From the NCBI GenBank assembly GCA_031416315.1, contig JANOTL010000036.1, positions 1 to 13,448 of the forward strand: a stretch of DNA of 13,448 nucleotides. Reading direction: 5' to 3'. This DNA comes from Pseudomonadota bacterium. Its GTDB lineage: Bacteria > Bdellovibrionota_B > Oligoflexia > Oligoflexales > CAIYRB01. The position numbers and the translations under genes were made by a program. Under the pieces are notes generated by a model. It saw nothing but the letters and a program-made list of their open reading frames with translations. It made no database searches and was not told the DNA's origin. Each line of letters starts with the position of its first letter. The stretch's first letter is position 1. Below are positions 1,901-13,448 of the stretch, piece by piece.

Positions 1901-3443
1901 CTACGCGCGACACTGGAAACTAGAACAAACGGGGCGCTGGCTGAGCCAAAGGCGCCGCTGCAGCGCGAACGGCAGCAGGCGCTCGAAGTCTTCTTCAGTC
2001 ACGGCGTTCGGCAGATCCGTGAAGACTCGCTCCAGGTAATCTTCCGGCTCGAGACCATTGGCGCGCCGTGACGACAATTGAATAGAGAGCGGCGCTCGCG
2101 CGGGTACCTTGCAGCGAGGTGCTGAAGAGCCAAGCCTTGCAGCCCATGACGAATGGTCGGATGGAGTTCTCGCAAGCGTTGTTGTCGATCGGGACGCTGC
2201 CGTTGCCCAGGCAGACGATGAGCGCATCCCAGTCATTGTCGGCATACTGCAGCGCGCGGCCGACCGGAGTCTTCGGTGGCGTCGTCGCAATTTTTTCGTC
2301 CAAAAACGCTCGGAATCGGTCGATACACCACTTCGAATGTTTCTGCCGCATCGCGAGCGCATCGACCTCTTCGCCGCGAGCCCGGCGCATCGCGATGGCG
2401 CACTCGACGCGGTAAAGGCTTTGAATCTTGATCATCGCCTTCGCGGCGATCGGGGATTTTGCGGCGCCGCCCGCAATCTTCACGGCGTCGGCAAATTTTC
2501 GTCGAACATGTGCCCAGCATCCGGCACGCGTTGCGCCGGTTTCTCGCGCAAATTTCGAGTAGCCGTCGAAGTGGTCCGTGACAAGCGTCCCTTTATAGCC
2601 CTTGAAGAGACGCTCGACGACGGCGGTGTTCCTTTTGGGATCATAGTCATAAAGAACGATCCGCTGGCCGGGCGCCTCCGAGAACGTGACCCAAATGAAG
2701 CCCTTTTGCTGCGGTCGCCGGTCTGGCTCATTCAGAACTTGGTGCGGCGTTTCGTCGCAGTGGACGATTGCGCGCTCGCGCGTGCGTCGCACGAGGCGGC
2801 CAACGAGCGGCGAGACGAGCTCGCCGCACTTGATCATCCATGAGGCCATCGTGCCGCGATCCAGGTCGACGCCGATTCGGCTCAGGATATCTTCTTGCCG
2901 ATAGAGCGGCAGGCCGTCGCAGTACTTTGCCGTCGCAACGTGCGCTAGAAGACTAGGGCTCGCAATCGAGCGCGGAATGGGTTGCTTTGGTATCTTCGCG
3001 GTCACGATCTTCTCGCCGCAGCCGCGACATCCGTATTTCATGCGCTCGTGACGCTTGACGACGATCTTGGCCGGAACGTACTCGAGCTGCTCGCTAACCT
3101 CGGCACCGATCTCGTGTAGCGGGTGGCCGCATGTGCAGACGCGTTCGGCTTCCGGGAGCACATGCGGAATCGACTCGCGCGGGATTTCAAGCGAAATGGT
3201 CGTTCGGCGCGGCATATTCTTCTGCTCTCGCCCGCGCCGCGTCTTCGGCGGCTCGGAATCGGCCTCTGCTGGCTCCGACTCGGCCGGTGTCTCGAAAAGA
3301 AGGCGCATGGCCGTCATCGTCTCGCTCGACGATGCGAACCGCTTGCGCCGGAGATAGTCGACGAGGCGCTCAAGATCCTTGATTTCGCTCTTCAGACGAG
3401 CGATTTCCAGGTTCTTCTTATCTGCGACGACTTCGATCGACAT
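1901..3443 (-). pseudogene. tnpC: IS66 transposase TnpC, frameshifted near the C-terminus
   Basis: Motifs RKRFASSSE, CxCG..IG.EVSEQLEYVP, KYCDGLPLYRQ, DET, CWAHVRRKF and IDNN.CENSIRP. At about 2061-2067 ACGGCGCGCCAAT lacks one GC repeat unit, and the conserved tail ANGLEPEDYL...LLPF continues in the frame of ORF 1901..2362. Confidence 0.9.
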
Positions 3444-4848: not shown

Positions 4849-4880
4849 ACGAACTCGGGCTGATAAAGGTCGGCGATGGC
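4849..4880 (+). repeat. 32-bp dispersed direct repeat, copy 1
   Basis: ACGAACTCGGGCTGATAAAGGTCGGCGATGGC is 29/32 identical to 6919-6950. Confidence 0.85.
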
Positions 4881-4896
4881 AGAGATGATCGAAATC

Positions 4897-5076
4897 CACA
4901 TCTCGTCAAAGCGCATCTTCCAGCCGCAAGCGTGGACGCCGAGTGAAGCGCTGCGCCTCCTGCGCGACGTGCCGGCGTTTGAGGCGAGCGGCATCCTCGT
5001 GCGCGTGCCCGACTGGTGGTCCCCGAAGAATCCACCACGCGCGAAAGTCTCTGTAAGCGTCGGCGCCAAGGCGCCA
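4897..5076 (+). pseudogene. Internal fragment of an SNF2-family helicase (N-terminal DUF3670-associated region)
   Basis: IFQPQAWTPSEALRLLRDVPAFEASGILVRVPDWWSPKNPPRAKVSVSVG resembles a conserved block of bacterial SNF2 helicases. The rest of ORF 4876..5601 appears to be non-coding or antisense shadow. Confidence 0.7.
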
Positions 5077-5113
5077 AGGCGCTTCAGGGATCAGGCGGGG
5101 TGCTTCGCCGAGC

Positions 5114-5141
5114 CCGCCACGGCGCTTACGCGCCGTGGCGG
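5114..5141 (-). repeat. Perfect 12-bp GC-rich hairpin (REP-like or terminator-like)
   Basis: CCGCCACGGCGC-TTAC-GCGCCGTGGCGG. The loop reads GUAA (GNRA) on the minus strand, about 90 nt downstream of the stop at 5230. There is no U-tract. Confidence 0.6.
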
Positions 5142-5229
5142 AATTGCTGCGTCCCGATCAACGAAGCGCTGGAACTTCGGTCGCGGCGACCGTAAGAATT
5201 TCGGTCTGGAACGGAGTGCAAAGGAACGC

Positions 5230-5571
5230 CTAGGAGCAGCGGCAGCTGAAGCTCGTCGCGTTGACTTGGACGTTGCCGTAGCCAGCGTGGCAGATGTCGC
5301 TACCCGCCGTGGCGCCAGCGCGGCGCTTGAAGTTGAAGCCGTAGAGGGTCGTGCCGGCCTGGGGGAAGTGGGCCTTACAAAGAAGGATCTCGCGATTGTT
5401 CCAGACGCTGTTGCCGCCGGGCGTCGTGCCGGACCGCCAGGGTGCGCCCTCGCCCGCCATCTCGCAGGTGACCTGGCAGTCGTAGCCGGTGCTGTTGATC
5501 CAGCCAGCGGCGAAGGCGCTGGTGGAGCTTACGGAGAGGGTGAGGAGCACGGTTTTGGCGAGACGAAACAT
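5230..5571 (-). CDS. Small secreted Cys-rich protein, 113 aa
   Basis: AAGGA RBS before ATG 5571. Signal peptide MFRLAKTVLLTLSVSSTSAFA|A. Six Cys in the mature part and a CxC at the C-terminus. Confidence 0.8.
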   Translation of the reverse strand: MFRLAKTVLLTLSVSSTSAFAAGWINSTGYDCQVTCEMAGEGAPWRSGTTPGGNSVWNNREILLCKAHFPQAGTTLYGFNFKRRAGATAGSDICHAGYGNVQVNATSFSCRCS

Positions 5572-5942
5572 GGGGGATTCCTTCTTGTTGATCACGAGTG
5601 ATGAATTTCTCGAGATTGACCGGAGCGATTTCAGGAGACGGATCTCTGAAAAGCGAGCCGGAGGGGGATGCGGAACGCAGTCTTTTCATGAGAGGTCGAT
5701 CTTTGTCAATGCTGAATGATTTTTAAGGCCAAGTTTATCGCGATACGGCTCGGCCTATGGCATTTCAACAGTATGCATATAATTCATGATTTTAAGTAGA
5801 ATTCATGGCTTAGCTAGCGAGGCAAAGCATTGGACGCAGCATCCTGCCTGCCCGGGCACGCTCGTAAGCATCGCTGCTGGTCGCGGCGGACGAACGCGAG
5901 GTGCGAGGGTTTCAACCGCGTCGCAACGCGCCTTGGCCTTGT

Positions 5943-6653
5943 CTAGCGTGCATACGAAGCTGAACTGGCCCTGGAGCGGGCGATCCAGATGATCTCGTCG
6001 ATCGTCTTCAAGACCTCGGGCGGCAAGTTCGAGCGGCGAGCGAGGTGGATGTCGTGGGCGCCGAAGCTCACGGGGAAACTTTGCAAGTTGACCTGCTTTA
6101 GTTGCCCCTTACGCATCAGGGGTGCCGCGACGTTACGCGGCATGACGCCGACGCCGAGCACGTTGCAGGTCAGCTCCTTGACTGACTCCATGTTCTCGCA
6201 GCTCAATGTCGCGCGGCGGCCGATGCGGCGGGCAAGGTGTGTCTCGCATGTGGCTCCCTTACGATCGAGCGCGGTGGGAAACCAGATCAGAGGCTGCGCG
6301 TTCAAGCCGTCCGATAGGGACGGATGCGCGAAGAACTCGTAGACGTCCGAGAACAGGACCCCGACCTTAATGTCACGCGATGGCATCAAGTTTGCGCCGA
6401 TGGCGCAGTCGATCTTGCCAGAGCGCAAGAGCTCGCTGAGCTTGGTGCTGCGCGACACGAATCCTCTGATGACGACCTGCTCATAGATCTGCTCAAGGAG
6501 CTTGCGAACGTCCGGCAGTAGGTAAGACGCGATGCTGTCGTACGTGCCAATGGACCGATCGATTCGCCGCTTCGGTCTTGAAAGATGCGACGTCATCTCT
6601 CATTGCAGCGAGCGCGCTCGCTTCAGCAAGTCCTGGCCGAAGTCGCAGAGTGC
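5943..6653 (-). pseudogene. LysR-type regulator remnant (HTH lost, in-frame TGA at 6600-6602)
   Basis: Substrate-binding domain IGTYDSIASYLLP...LRSGKIDCAI...ENMESVKEL...LGVGVMPRNVA. The linker helix ALCDFGQDLLKRARSLQ*EM is in frame upstream, and no HTH is recognisable. Confidence 0.8.
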
Positions 6654-9341: not shown

Positions 9342-9638
9342 ATGACGAACCATCCGTTCAGTCAAAGTCCGTTCATGACCGTCGAAGAAGTCGCCGCCTA
9401 TCTGCGCGTCCAAACATCGACCGTTTACGGTTGGAAGTATCGCGGCCTGATCGGCGCGCGAAAACACGGCGCGCGTTTGCTCTTCCATCGTGACGAGGTC
9501 GAGCGCTTTTCGTCGGCGAATCGCGTCGATCCGTTGCCGCCGATCTATGTTAACTTTCGAGCGACGTCGTCTTCGCCTGCTCAGGGCGCGCGCGACGGCT
9601 CTTTGAAAACCAAACGAGCTGCCGGCAAAGAGCCCTAA
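9342..9638 (+). CDS. xis: Excisionase-like HTH protein (HTH_17/MerR-like recombination directionality factor)
   Basis: FMTVEEVAAYLRVQTSTVYGWKYRGLIGARKHGARLLFHRDEVERF. It has a GGAG RBS and lies directly upstream of the integrase. Confidence 0.85.
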   Translation: MTNHPFSQSPFMTVEEVAAYLRVQTSTVYGWKYRGLIGARKHGARLLFHRDEVERFSSANRVDPLPPIYVNFRATSSSPAQGARDGSLKTKRAAGKEP

Positions 9639-9656: not shown

Positions 9657-10805
9657 ATGGCAATCATGTCGGTAAAGACCAAGGACAACCAGCAACGTTG
9701 GCTTGTGCGAGTGCGCGACGGGAATGGAAAATGGTTTCGGGCTAAGCGTTTTCGCCGCAAACCCGATGCAGAACGATACGAGCGTGAGCTCGAGTCATTG
9801 GCGGATCAAGGCGGACTAGCTCAAGCTTCGGAGACACAACGCATCCTCTTCGGAACCTTTGCTGCCAAATGGTGCGCGGAGCGACGGTCGAAGGTATCGA
9901 GAGGTTGGCGCCTGACCCAGGATCAAATGCTCCGGGACTACGTGCTCCCAACTTTAGGGACGCGCAAACTGTGCGAAATCCGACCCGAGCACGTCGGTCA
10001 GGTCCTTCTGCAAATGCAAAAGGCAGGTCGCGGCGCGCAGCTTCAACTGCACGTCTACAACTTGATGAGCCGAATTTTCGGCCAAGCCGTCCGCTACTAC
10101 CGCGTCCTTTCCGAAAGTCCCGTCAGCGAGCAGGACAAGCCCGAGCCGCTAAAAGTGGAGAGGCCGCATCTCAATCCTGACGAAGCACGACGGCTCCTCG
10201 TCGCGTCCCGCGACCTTCCCATCGGCCCGGCCATTTGGCTCGCAACGTTGGCGACGATGCGAGCGAGCGAGATCCAGGCGCTCACGGTCGGCGCCATCGA
10301 CTTCGAGCGGGGCCAGATTCACATCAGAGCGGCGTTCAAGCGCAAAGTCCGCGAGATCGAGCCCTACCCGAAGCAGAGACGAGCGGGCCTGGTTCCGATG
10401 GCACCCGTGCTTGCAGATTACCTTCGCTCCAGAACGGCGGGAAAACGAGACGACGAGTTCGTGGTGTCGGGCGTGAATCAGGCGATGCTGGACCACCTGA
10501 CCTTTCTCGCTCGAGTCGTAGACCTCTGCAAGGAGCTGGGACTACCTCGAGTCACCCCGCACGGCCTGCGCCACTCCGGGACGGAGCTCTGGGTCGAGCA
10601 AGGAGCAAGCGAAGAGGATCTCGTCCGCCTTCTGAACCATTCGGGAGCGGCCGCGGTTCGTCGCTACATCCACCCCACGCACACGCGGCTTCAAGAGATC
10701 GCTCTCAAGATTCAGGTGCAAACGCCGGAGGTGACGCCGCCGCCTCGAGCTCCGACGCCGCCACTACCAACGAGCGGACCACCGCGGCTCCGGATCGTTC
10801 GATGA
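9657..10805 (+). CDS. int: Tyrosine integrase, 382 aa
   Basis: N-terminal arm-binding-like region (WLVRVRDGNGK..KRFRRK.DAE) and a core-binding domain (YVLPTLG.RKL.EI.P). The catalytic motifs MRASEI, HGLRH, LLNHS and RRYIH are intact. It has a GGAGG RBS and is adjacent to a tRNA. Confidence 0.95.
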   Translation: MAIMSVKTKDNQQRWLVRVRDGNGKWFRAKRFRRKPDAERYERELESLADQGGLAQASETQRILFGTFAAKWCAERRSKVSRGWRLTQDQMLRDYVLPTLGTRKLCEIRPEHVGQVLLQMQKAGRGAQLQLHVYNLMSRIFGQAVRYYRVLSESPVSEQDKPEPLKVERPHLNPDEARRLLVASRDLPIGPAIWLATLATMRASEIQALTVGAIDFERGQIHIRAAFKRKVREIEPYPKQRRAGLVPMAPVLADYLRSRTAGKRDDEFVVSGVNQAMLDHLTFLARVVDLCKELGLPRVTPHGLRHSGTELWVEQGASEEDLVRLLNHSGAAAVRRYIHPTHTRLQEIALKIQVQTPEVTPPPRAPTPPLPTSGPPRLRIVR

Positions 10806-10813
10806 GATCTCAT

Positions 10814-10832
10814 GTACACTTCCCGTTCACTT
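10814..10832 (+). promoter_or_regulatory. Putative integrase arm-type binding sites
   Basis: GTACACTT (10814-10821) and GTTCACTT (10825-10832), with an 11-bp period, between the int stop and the tRNA 3' end. Confidence 0.5.
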
Positions 10833-10885
10833 TTCCAGTTTTCGTGACGGGCGAACAGAGATCAGATCATCGTAAGGTATTGGAA

Positions 10886-10975
10886 TGGCGGAGAGAGTGG
10901 GATTCGAACCCACGTTACCGGTTAAGATAAACACGCTTTCCAAGCGTGCGCCTTCAGCCGCTCGGCCATCTCTCC
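10886..10975 (-). tRNA. tRNA-Ser (anticodon GGA), CCA encoded
   Basis: GGAGAGATGGCCGAGCGGCTGAAGGCGCACGC-TTGGAAA-GCGTG, a long variable arm, then GTGGG-TTCGAAT-CCCAC-TCTCTCC-G-CCA. Length 90 nt with discriminator G. Confidence 0.98.
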
Positions 10976-10992
10976 GTATGAAGGAACGCTAG

Positions 10993-11021
10993 TGTTTACG
11001 CCAAGATACGTTTGGGGTCAA
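10993..11021 (-). promoter_or_regulatory. Candidate sigma70 promoter of tRNA-Ser
   Basis: Minus-strand TTGACC (11021-11016), a 17-bp spacer, then TAAACA (10998-10993), ending 17 nt before the tRNA 5' end. Confidence 0.5.
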
Positions 11022-11181
11022 GAACTTTAAGTGGCCGGATTCACTCTCAAGTGGTCCAAAGGTGGCCCGGAGTTCTTATCGACTACCGACTAATCGGGAA
11101 GTGACTCAGCGTCGGACTAGTTTGATTGGGACGGCAGCCGCGCTTCGACGCCGCCGCTGACTGAAATGCGAGTTTCCGTAG

Positions 11182-11198
11182 CGCTCGGCCATCTCTCC
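11182..11198 (-). repeat. Exact duplicate of tRNA-Ser nucleotides 1-17 (putative att core)
   Basis: CGCTCGGCCATCTCTCC is identical to 10959-10975, and identity stops exactly at the mature 5' G. Confidence 0.85.
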
Positions 11199-11424
11199 TG
11201 GGAACAGAATCCCGCAGGTTGCGATCCTATTCGTTCGGCTAGGGGAACGGCTCCTGTAGCTCCTGGAAATACGAGAAGCTACCTAGCCAACTTAAACCAA
11301 TTTTCGCGAGAGCCGGTGGAATGCCGGTTTTTTCGCGTTCGCAACCAACTGATCTATTTGGACATATTCTTCAATATGCCATGGCTCGTAAAACTTTTTT
11401 GCGAAATCCCGATCCTGTTCAGTG

Positions 11425-12006
11425 ATGAGCAGAGGCGAAAAAAATGTGTTGGTCTTGGCGATGCTGGTGGCGGTGGCCGCTGGCTGCGGCCGTAGCTCCG
11501 TCACGGTTTCGAGCGAAGGTTCCGTGATCGTTCGGAAAAAGCCTTCGGTGGCGCCGACTTCGATCCCGAATCTCTTCTACGGCAATCGCACCCACCTCCA
11601 GTCGCACGGCGTCTTGATCATCTCCGCAGATCGGGACGGGATGCTCGGCAAGCAGGTCACGCGCGTTTGGAACGTCACCACTGGCCAGGACGTCGTCGAC
11701 CCGGCCATCTTCGAGACCTCGCTCGCGACGCGGGTGGCGCTCGGTGTCGTAGAGAATCGTCGAAAGTTTGAATACGGCGAGAACGAGCTGCAGATGGAGC
11801 TCGTCGACCCGGTGTCAGGCGATCCTTTCTTTAGCAACTGGAAGGTCGTCCTTCGTGACCACAGCGTCGGCCAGATTTCGCAAAATACGGCGACGATCTC
11901 AGGCGACGGCAGATCTGTCGGTCAAGTCGGGATTCTTTCCAACGGCGTCCAGGTCCAGGACGGCATCGTCCTGACGACGGGCTTCGTTTCGGGGGTGTTC
12001 CAATGA
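11425..12006 (+). CDS. Lipoprotein of unknown function, 193 aa
   Basis: [21 protein letters not shown] lipobox followed by a beta-rich-looking sequence. The stop overlaps the next start (ATGA at 12003-12006). Confidence 0.8.
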
Positions 12007-13448
12007 ATGCGGCGCGGCTTTGGACCTTGCTCGGAATGTTGGCGCTCGCCGCTTGGCCGTCTCTCGCACGCGCTGTCGAGAGCTTCGATTTCGTTTATAC
12101 CGGACGCGTCGCCGACGAAGAAGGCCGTCCGTTGACCGGCAGCGTCACGGTGACCGCCACGTTCTTCCATCAGGAAGTCGGCGGCGAGCCGATCCACACC
12201 TTGGATCAAAGCATCGAGCCCGTGACTCTGGCCGAAGGCGGCCTGTTCGAGGCGGTGATCGCGATCCCGGCCGCGATCTACGGCGAAATTTTCCCCGACG
12301 TGCGCCAGCCGGTGTTTCTCGCCGTGAGCGTCACCGCTGCCAACGGCCGCGTCGTCAAGTTCGCGCGGCAGCGCTTCTCGATCGTCCCCTATGCCGCGAA
12401 AGTGCCGGTCGACGCGAAGCTCTTCCGCTTCGACGCCGAGGGTCGCCTGTCGACGCGGACGCAACCGCAGCCGAACACGTACATGATGATCGACGCCACG
12501 GGGCAGCTTGCCTTCGTGGAAGCTCCGTCCACCGCCATCGGCGCCGAAGCTATCGGCACTGAAGCCCTCAAGCAGGACGCGGTCACCTCGGACAAGATCG
12601 CAGACGGATCGATCGGCGGCGCCGACGTCGCGAGCACGGCCGCGCTGACGATCGCGTCCATCGCAACGTCGACGCAAAACGCCGTCGAGATTCGGCCAGC
12701 GTCGCCGAGCGCGACCGGCGAGATGCGTTTCGTCGAGCTCTCCGCCGGCGGGACGGAGTACGTCGGGTTTAAAGCTCCCGATCTCGTCAACGCGACGATG
12801 GTTTGGACGCTCCCCAGCGCCGACGGCGGCGTCGGTCAAGTCCTTCAGACGGACGGTGCGGGCGCGCTCAGCTGGGCCAGCGCCGCGGTCGGTGCGACTG
12901 GCGCGACCGGCGTCACCGGTGCCGCTGGTGCGATCGGCGCGACGGGTGCCGCTGGTGCGATAGGACCCACAGGCGCCATTGGCGCCACCGGACTTGGAGG
13001 CGCGAATGGCACCAACGGGATCAACGGCGCCACCGGCGTTACGGGGCCGACCGGGCCTTCGGGCGTCAGTGGGACGAACGGCGCGAATGGCGTCACCGGC
13101 GCAACGGGCGTAACGGGACCAACCGGACCTTCGGGCGCCGATGGAACCAACGGCACCAACGGCACCAACGGCGCGAACGGCATCACGGGCGCGGCTGGCG
13201 TAACGGGACCCACCGGACCCACTGGTCTGACCGGCGCGATCGGCGTCACGGGCGCAACCGGCGTGACGGGATCAACCGGACCTTCGGGCGCCGATGGAAC
13301 GAACGGAACGAACGGAACTAACGGCGCGAACGGCGTCACCGGCGCAACGGGCGTGACGGGACCAACCGGACCTTCGGGCGCCGATGGCACGAACGGCGCG
13401 AACGGCGTCACCGGCGCAACGGGCGTAACGGGACCAACCGGTCCTTCG
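12003..13448 (+). CDS. Secreted collagen-like surface fibre/adhesin (partial, runs off the right edge)
   Basis: Not in the ORF track because it has no stop in the window. Signal peptide [25 protein letters not shown], then [55 protein letters not shown]...[22 protein letters not shown], and Gly-X-Y from 12891 onward. Confidence 0.92.
12891..13448 (+). repeat. Collagen Gly-X-Y region (62 triplets to the window end) with near-identical 54-nt blocks
   Basis: [16 protein letters not shown]... The block [18 protein letters not shown] recurs at 13080-13133, 13323-13376 and 13395-13448. Confidence 0.93.

Follow-up and report, generated by a model that had tools for sequence, protein, structure and literature searches.

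A repeated 5′ end of a tRNA-Ser(GGA) gene as a possible scar of 5′-side insertion into the D-loop

Genomic islands that enter tRNA genes in reverse orientation, forming a class marked by a 5′ tDNA fragment, were reportedly described by Zhao and Williams in 2002 (J Bacteriol 184:859), a paper cited in PMC6563490. The usual polarity is the opposite one: of the 3919 islands tabulated in the Islander database, 3760 have a 3′ fragment of the target gene vs 159 with a 5′ fragment (PMC4383910, Table 1), in line with the statement of an earlier note on the DNA considered here that tRNA-targeting integrases almost always duplicate the 3′ part. According to the Islander description, crossover takes place at three subsites, namely the anticodon loop, the T loop, and the T/acceptor junction, and elements that have to rebuild the gene split by them are recognised by a block of identity that extends from the crossover to the tRNA end (PMC4383910). 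The filters given in the same source ask for a tyrosine integrase gene between the fragment and the tRNA and for a length of 2–200 kb.

Two further systems should be considered alongside these islands. CIMEs, gene-less remnants that keep attL and attR, have lost their integration genes, and are excised or mobilised by the integrase of a related element, are found at the target gene's 3′ end and have att specificity in common with a neighbouring element. Another solution has been described for actinobacteriophages that use a tyrosine integrase and cores of 8–17 bp: the host tRNA is not rebuilt, and a cognate tRNA is encoded by the phage (Guerrero-Bustamante and Hatfull 2024, PMC10865867). In the phages presented in that account, the core lies in the tRNA gene's 3′ half, at the crossover usual for related integrases, and either end of the prophage is left with a broken host tRNA; in phage Gaia, the cognate tRNA is placed directly downstream of int.

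The window, i.e., the whole stretch of DNA that was analysed, is the complete contig JANOTL010000036.1 (13,448 bp) of the MAG GCA_031416315.1, which consists of 226 contigs (6.36 Mb) and is 93% complete. ARAGORN finds one tRNA in it, tRNA-Ser(GGA). A second ARAGORN ‘Ser(gga)’ call, on contig C109, lies within a coding region and is unlike a Ser tRNA; thus, the gene in the window is the sole real gene of its isoacceptor in the assembly. Its first 17 nt recur 206 bp upstream as an orphan copy, referred to below as the stump (Table 1). The two copies are identical at 17 of 17 positions, have the same orientation, and are separated by 223 bp start to start, which bears out the earlier note; on the plus strand, the 17-mer within the gene is the complement of tRNA nt 17–1. 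The bases adjoining the copies are unlike at both ends (c at 10958 vs g at 11181, and g at 10976 vs t at 11199), so that the repeat is exactly 17 nt long and ends at the mature 5′ end, again as the note had it. The tRNA is of class II, and the other edge of the repeat falls in its D-loop, between nt 17 and nt 18. Identity past the stump ends at 17 nt by BLAST, and no tRNA-like match was found there in Rfam at E up to 1. The absence of tRNA likeness after the stump argues that a sharp break was made and that slow decay was not the cause.

Table 1. Features of the window, with positions on the contig.
Feature	Position	Strand	Basis or remarks
IS66-family transposase	1995–3443	minus	PF03050 6.5e-91
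241-aa ORF	4876–5601	plus	only first 54 of 136 positions of DUF3670/SNF2-helicase model
217-aa LysR substrate-binding domain	5943–6596	minus	no HTH-domain match in ORF
Excisionase-like HTH gene directly upstream of int	9342–9638	plus	PHROG 66 ‘excisionase and transcriptional regulator’ 5.2e-9
Tyrosine integrase (int)	9657–10805	plus	PF00589 1.5e-15, PF22022; PHROG 1 integrase 6.8e-43
tRNA-Ser(GGA)	10886–10975	minus	ARAGORN; Rfam RF00005, 59.9 bits
Repeat copy 1, tRNA nt 1–17 including unusual C16	10959–10975	minus	sequence, repeat search
Spacer, presumed inserted DNA, 206 bp	10976–11181	minus	single-copy, non-coding, unstructured
Predicted tRNA promoter	10993–11021	minus	−35 TTGACC 11021–11016, −10 TAAACA 10998–10993, read from sequence
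Three short direct motifs AAGTGG, AAGTGG, AGGTGG	11029, 11049, 11060 (11029–11065)	plus	motif positions; spacing 20 and 11
Repeat copy 2 (stump), orphan tRNA nt 1–17, then non-tRNA sequence	11182–11198	minus	sequence, repeat search

With the 5′ tDNA fragment islands the locus shares a displaced 5′ fragment that starts at nt 1 and lies upstream of an intact tRNA in the same orientation. In such islands, a promoter and a new 5′ part of the gene have to come from the DNA in between; at this locus, the promoter TTGACC-17-TAAACA is a prediction. Unlike those islands, the locus has 206 bp between the copies and no integrase gene there, and its break at nt 17/18, in the D-loop, differs from the Islander subsites. 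With no integrase inside and a length below 2 kb, it would be rejected by the Islander filters. It resembles a CIME in being a gene-less segment with direct repeats at a tRNA gene, beside an integrase-bearing element, if these repeats are indeed att sites; however, the repeats mark the 5′ end of the gene, and the neighbouring integrase is of a 3′-side family. To the phages with tRNA-dependent lysogeny, as portrayed in PMC10865867, the locus is similar in the short repeat at a tRNA gene (17 bp, against 8–17 bp in the phages) and in the complete tRNA gene of the same isotype adjoining a tyrosine integrase. It differs from them in that no second fragment is seen in the assembly, where the contig ends inside the island, and its integrase family points to nt 29–90 whereas the stump ends at nt 17. 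The locus may thus be a 5′-fragment scar with a D-loop break and no genes, a variation on the known 5′-fragment tRNA islands; we hold this assignment tentatively, at a likelihood a little under one half. No description of a D-loop att site was found in the literature searched, which does not disprove that such sites exist elsewhere.

The anatomy described above is not random. When up to three mismatches are allowed, the 17-mer pattern has four matches in the window, with 0.17 expected, and none of 200 shuffles reaches four. An empirical null was built from 46 ARAGORN calls in four flank/orientation combinations with 2-kb flanks, which gives 184 longest exact matches between a tRNA and its flank. 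The most frequent lengths in this set are 8 nt (87 matches), 9 nt (33), and 7 nt (28). The 17-mer is the maximum of the 184 comparisons, and no other tRNA of the genome matches its local flank over such a length; the next longest matches are of 15 and 13 nt, the former belonging to an 89-nt ‘tRNA-Arg’ call with many GC-rich chance matches. Among the matches that start at tRNA nt 1, the 17-mer is also the longest, the rest being of 7–10 nt. Across the whole genome, exact tRNA matches of 15–19 nt to unrelated DNA are frequent; therefore, the significance of the repeat rests on its proximity, its orientation, and its anchoring at nt 1. In run X1, a Logan contig with a length of 2191 nt and a depth of 9.39 spans positions 10928–12100 with no differences, which rules out misassembly, and the depth is similar on either side (X1 contigs of 10.1 and 9.39). 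Because X1 is probably the source sample, the Logan contig should be regarded as a second assembly and not as a second sample.

Within the assembly of 6.36 Mb, the spacer has no match besides itself and short, GC-rich stretches attributable to chance, and the repeat search found no inverted repeats at its ends. It was rejected as a coding relic because of stops in all six frames, and as a structured RNA on the basis of a fold z-score of 0.30 and no Rfam family at E up to 1. The candidate tRNA promoter that the earlier note had placed in the spacer is present as TTGACC-17-TAAACA, the only recognisable promoter there, with 17 nt between the two boxes and 17 nt from TAAACA to the mature 5′ end. 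It counts as a prediction, since a stricter sigma-70 scan of positions 10700–11600 gave no sites. In the genome as a whole, TTGAC is found at −65 to −31 in 14 of the 46 upstream regions of ARAGORN tRNAs, that of tRNA-Ser(GGA) included, and a predicted promoter of the same type and geometry precedes 13 other tRNA genes; a −10-like box at a similar distance is also seen in the Ser(GGA) genes of same-family relatives. The 65 nt upstream of the stump are without TTGAC, as are 32 of the 46 tRNA upstream regions. The ‘arm-like repeats’ mentioned in the same note correspond to the three short direct motifs just upstream of the −35 box; they do exist but are weak, lying below the repeat-search thresholds. 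They might be protein-binding sites, although they are too short to carry weight.

Two other sequence features were noticed around the spacer. At 11176–11188, the plus strand reads CCGTAGCGCTCGG, where a 6-bp palindrome AGCGCT (11180–11185) spans the nt 17/18 break and is bordered by CCG(T) and CGG; it was noticed by eye. Further, a 20-nt direct repeat of 85% identity links the 3′ end of the integrase gene (10746–10765, CGAGCTCCGACGCCGCCACT) with the spacer (11139–11158, CGCGCTTCGACGCCGCCGCT); it is GC-rich and may be due to chance.

The 17-nt repeat can be understood, in this single case, as the scar of an insertion of reversed polarity into the D-loop of tRNA-Ser(GGA), now gene-less; we regard this as the best explanation while giving it slightly less than an even likelihood. 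The reasoning is as follows. With nt 1–17 left behind and non-tRNA sequence after nt 17, the sole Ser(GGA) gene would have been broken unless nt 1–17 and a promoter were restored, and because the restored nt 1–17 and promoter lie between the copies, the locus is read as a D-loop insertion scar. DNA would have been inserted between bases 17 and 18 of the gene, carrying its own bases 1–17 plus a promoter, and the old start of the gene would have been stranded 206 bp upstream. By analogy with the 5′-fragment islands, the incoming DNA probably recombined site-specifically with the gene in this step, through a short block of identity. The remaining 206 bp, which is about the size of an attP site, may be left over from the decay of a larger element or may be a non-autonomous piece. 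The tRNA is now predicted to be transcribed from TTGACC-17-TAAACA within the spacer, and the stump would be inert. The earlier note had offered much the same as one of two models, in which an element integrated at the 5′ end/D-arm, supplied a new promoter and tRNA start, and survives as a 206-bp mini-element. This model gives the best fit to the anatomy, but no empty site, circle, relative with the locus, or recombinase between the repeats was found in its support.

Several points speak against an insertion scar. Both copies bear C16, which is most simply obtained by copying the local gene, and a foreign element would need to have had C16 beforehand. There is no recognisable old promoter before the stump, which is a weak objection. 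Moreover, a crossover in the D-loop is outside the subsites listed by Islander, and the ‘arm-like’ motifs are weak. It is very doubtful that the 223-bp unit, made up of the 17-mer and the 206 bp, is a living integrative element of attP size that is non-autonomous, targets the D-loop of Ser tRNA genes on their 5′ side, brings in a promoter and a new gene start, and depends for its movement in trans on a recombinase encoded elsewhere. If it were such an element, tRNA-gene integration would have a fourth sublocation class, that of the D-arm, with this unit as its first member. If the insertion-scar reading is true, entry into tRNA genes is possible at the D-loop, from the side of the promoter and outside the known crossover subsites, and the promoter of an essential single-copy tRNA gene is foreign or replaced DNA; such scars would escape island finders that ask for an integrase and a length of 2 kb or more. 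The evidence comes from one locus in one MAG without comparators.

A tyrosine integrase gene lies on the other side of the tRNA, is convergent with it, and ends 80 bp from the tRNA 3′ end; this is the single integrase of the window, and there is no recombinase gene between the repeats. Matches to it at E up to 1e-20 were found in 18 of 95 genomes of the order, the source genome counted. Seven of nine full-length homologues (40–52% identity) are convergent with a tRNA gene as well, about 100–270 nt from its 3′ end, the tRNAs being Ser, Ile, Pro (four loci), and Arg; the two other loci are without a tRNA. The best homologue (52%), in genome G007, has the same position beside tRNA-Ser(GGA), and a copy of tRNA nt 29–90, identical to the gene of that genome at 62 of 62 positions, lies 11.3 kb away and bounds the island. 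In genome G008, where an integrase of the G007 type is absent, 1.6 kb of the upstream flank align at 89.9%, and the 31 nt after the tRNA match the flank beyond the 3′ fragment of G007; this provides a partial empty-site comparison. In addition, 3′ fragments of tRNA-Ser(GGA) starting at nt 26–32 are present in G012 and G027. Judging from these sequences, the polarity of the integrase family is the usual 3′ one, and its site of action is the anticodon stem-loop. Since the family is found at tRNA 3′ ends and the repeat in G007 covers nt 29–90, the break at nt 17/18 is unlikely to be its work, and the xis-int pair belongs to a separate, canonical 3′-side island.

The earlier note had suggested that the contig left of the window be searched for tRNA fragments, either a 3′-end copy or a remainder starting near nt 18. 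Neither was found on the contig or elsewhere in the assembly, within the limits set by the contig end 10.9 kb left of the tRNA and by a MAG that is 93% complete; the far end of the island is unassembled or lost. Three matches were rejected as remainders: one on contig C200 (tRNA nt 10–27) lies within a coding frame, one on C55 is a 16/17 match in GC-rich DNA, and one on C149 belongs to another tRNA, of which it is the 3′ end. Left of the integrase, the island appears degraded (Table 1). In another genome of the set, G026, the intact gene is followed 3.9 kb downstream by an internal piece of tRNA-Ser(GGA) (nt 30–62, 100% identical; locus L065, contig C164, 7060–7092), which a related island probably left behind as a truncated att remnant.

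Comparison with relatives concerns mainly the tRNA itself. Related genomes were aligned in search of an empty site, as the note had proposed, and in all 40 relatives the tRNA alone aligns, with neither the spacer nor the right flank; the same-genus genome G001 (assembly 82% complete) is without a tRNA-Ser(GGA) gene. Position 16 is T in 18 of 18 tabulated tRNA-Ser(GGA) genes of relatives and C in both the tRNA of the window and the stump; the table leaves out locus L026, whose alignment began at nt 13. Among the other genomes of the order there are 13 Ser tRNA starts with C16, none of them among the 18 tabulated GGA genes. The intact tRNA-Ser(GGA) of G026 differs from that of the window at position 16 only. 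The tRNA of the window has the same variable arm as the genes of G026 and G025, two genomes of other families, and an arm that differs at 4–7 positions from six of seven same-family genes, the 89-nt tRNA of the seventh (G009) being unaligned. Such an arm is in keeping with a canonical island that moves horizontally and has supplied the 3′ part. A scan with the 17-mer motif over 95 genomes of the order and 131 of the phylum gave at most four matches per genome among the matches listed, and no other orphan 17-mer stump was seen among those listed for the 131 genomes of the phylum.

A non-site-specific origin of the repeat would be a staggered break over tRNA nt 1–17 that was filled in around 206 bp of captured DNA, either in repair or in an event like that of a transposon in which a long target stretch is duplicated, the gene surviving owing to a chance promoter in the filler. 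Such an origin is possible but rather unlikely. It would account for the lineage-specific C16 common to both copies, as is expected when one gene is copied, and it needs no unseen recombinase, in agreement with the lack of a second copy, of any sign of mobility, and of convincing core or arm symmetry. On the other side, one of the cuts must hit the mature 5′ end exactly, and the filler must bring a well-placed TTGACC-17-TAAACA. The spacer, moreover, is unlike a transposon: being single-copy and without terminal inverted repeats, it is not a MITE. Target duplications of 17 bp are rare in bacteria. The second model of the earlier note, in which the island with int carries its own complete tRNA-Ser(GGA) and promoter and was integrated via a short D-loop core without rebuilding, the stump being the start of the old gene, appears improbable. 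It has a published precedent in tRNA-dependent lysogeny, as described for the phages of PMC10865867, and the tRNA is indeed 80 bp downstream of int. The variable arm, shared with other families and not with most same-family genes, is also consistent with it, but a canonical island also explains the foreign-looking arm. Relatives of the integrase use nt 29–90, from the anticodon stem to the 3′ end, and rebuild the tRNA, so that a stump of about 30–38 nt and not of 17 nt would be expected; there is no second Ser(GGA) 3′ remainder in the assembly, within the contig and completeness limits given above; and the coincidence of C16 in the stump and the tRNA, seen in none of the 18 relatives' GGA genes, is left unexplained. 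The model is therefore disfavoured.

The stump could also be what is left of a former upstream tRNA-Ser gene, that is, a decayed tandem duplicate surviving as its first 17 nt. Relatives do have tandem pairs of Ser tRNA genes 111–286 nt apart, start to start, but these pairs consist of two full-length genes of other isoacceptors on other contigs, as confirmed for eight same-contig pairs (five of them tandem; the pairs of G075 and G087 were left out of this confirmation). The earlier note had named tandem tRNA-Ser genes with one decayed as an observation that would count against its models, and at this locus no such arrangement was found. Identity is 17 of 17 and then undetectable from nt 18, with no Rfam remnant at E up to 1; decay would not yield one perfect block with sharp edges, and this origin is highly improbable. 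Still less credible is a chance match or an assembly artefact. Chance can draw on the frequency of exact 15–19-nt tRNA matches genome-wide and on the very many windows scanned beforehand, but the local null is mostly 7–9 nt, no shuffle attains the observed count, and the match has the orientation of the gene and its anchor at nt 1. An artefact is contradicted by the independent k-mer assembly of X1, which spans the region at even depth. Thus, it is the insertion into the D-loop from the 5′ side that we retain, tentatively, as the explanation of the repeat.

Evidence of the insertion step itself was sought in several ways. The junction of the stump with the right flank, used as a 26-nt exact pattern, had no matches in metagenomes. 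A search with the integrase for a closer island brought none: genome contigs gave three loci, two of them known same-order homologues (41–45%) and one at 23%, and metagenome contigs gave one locus at 23% and nothing useful. The 223-bp circle or empty site that the earlier note expected in reads was looked for in the contigs of four runs; no such joints were found, and runs X2–X4 cover scattered 150-nt pieces only, so that this absence speaks neither for nor against the insertion. As neither an empty site nor a circle nor a second example has been found, we infer the direction of the event, its site-specific nature, and any mobility of the segment from the anatomy and from analogy.

A 194-aa lipoprotein-like gene in the right flank (11422–12006) has no match in the 19 tRNA loci of relatives (L012–L030) or in five family genomes. 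Next to it, an ORF on the plus strand (12003–13448) that runs off the contig end encodes a secreted-looking protein with C-terminal collagen-like Gly-X-Y repeats (PF01391 2.6e-27), and the contig probably breaks within this repeat. A divergent fMet-Ser(GGA) pair is present in G003, G005, and G006 and absent from the fetched loci of G007, G008, G002, G013, G023, G024, G025, G026, and G027; because of this mixed presence, no ancestral state can be derived from fMet synteny.

Another oddity of the D-arm in the same tRNA was seen in G027, a genome of the same order. A second, divergent tRNA-Ser(GGA)-like copy (locus L061, contig C93, 528–621, minus strand) has GGAGAGG joined directly to about nt 16–90 and looks like a gene without nt 8–15. 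It lies 2.7 kb from an nt 32–90 fragment, on a contig of 3.9 kb. Finally, displaced 3′ fragments of other tRNA genes occur in the source genome itself (contigs C13/C81, C93/C177, C98/C113, and C95): fMet nt 33–77 (45 nt), Met nt 32–76 (45 nt), Asn nt 29–75 (47 nt), and two tRNA-SeC 3′ ends of 21–23 nt on the contig of tRNA-SeC. Given these fragments, several tRNA genes of the genome, that of tRNA-SeC included, seem to be island sites.
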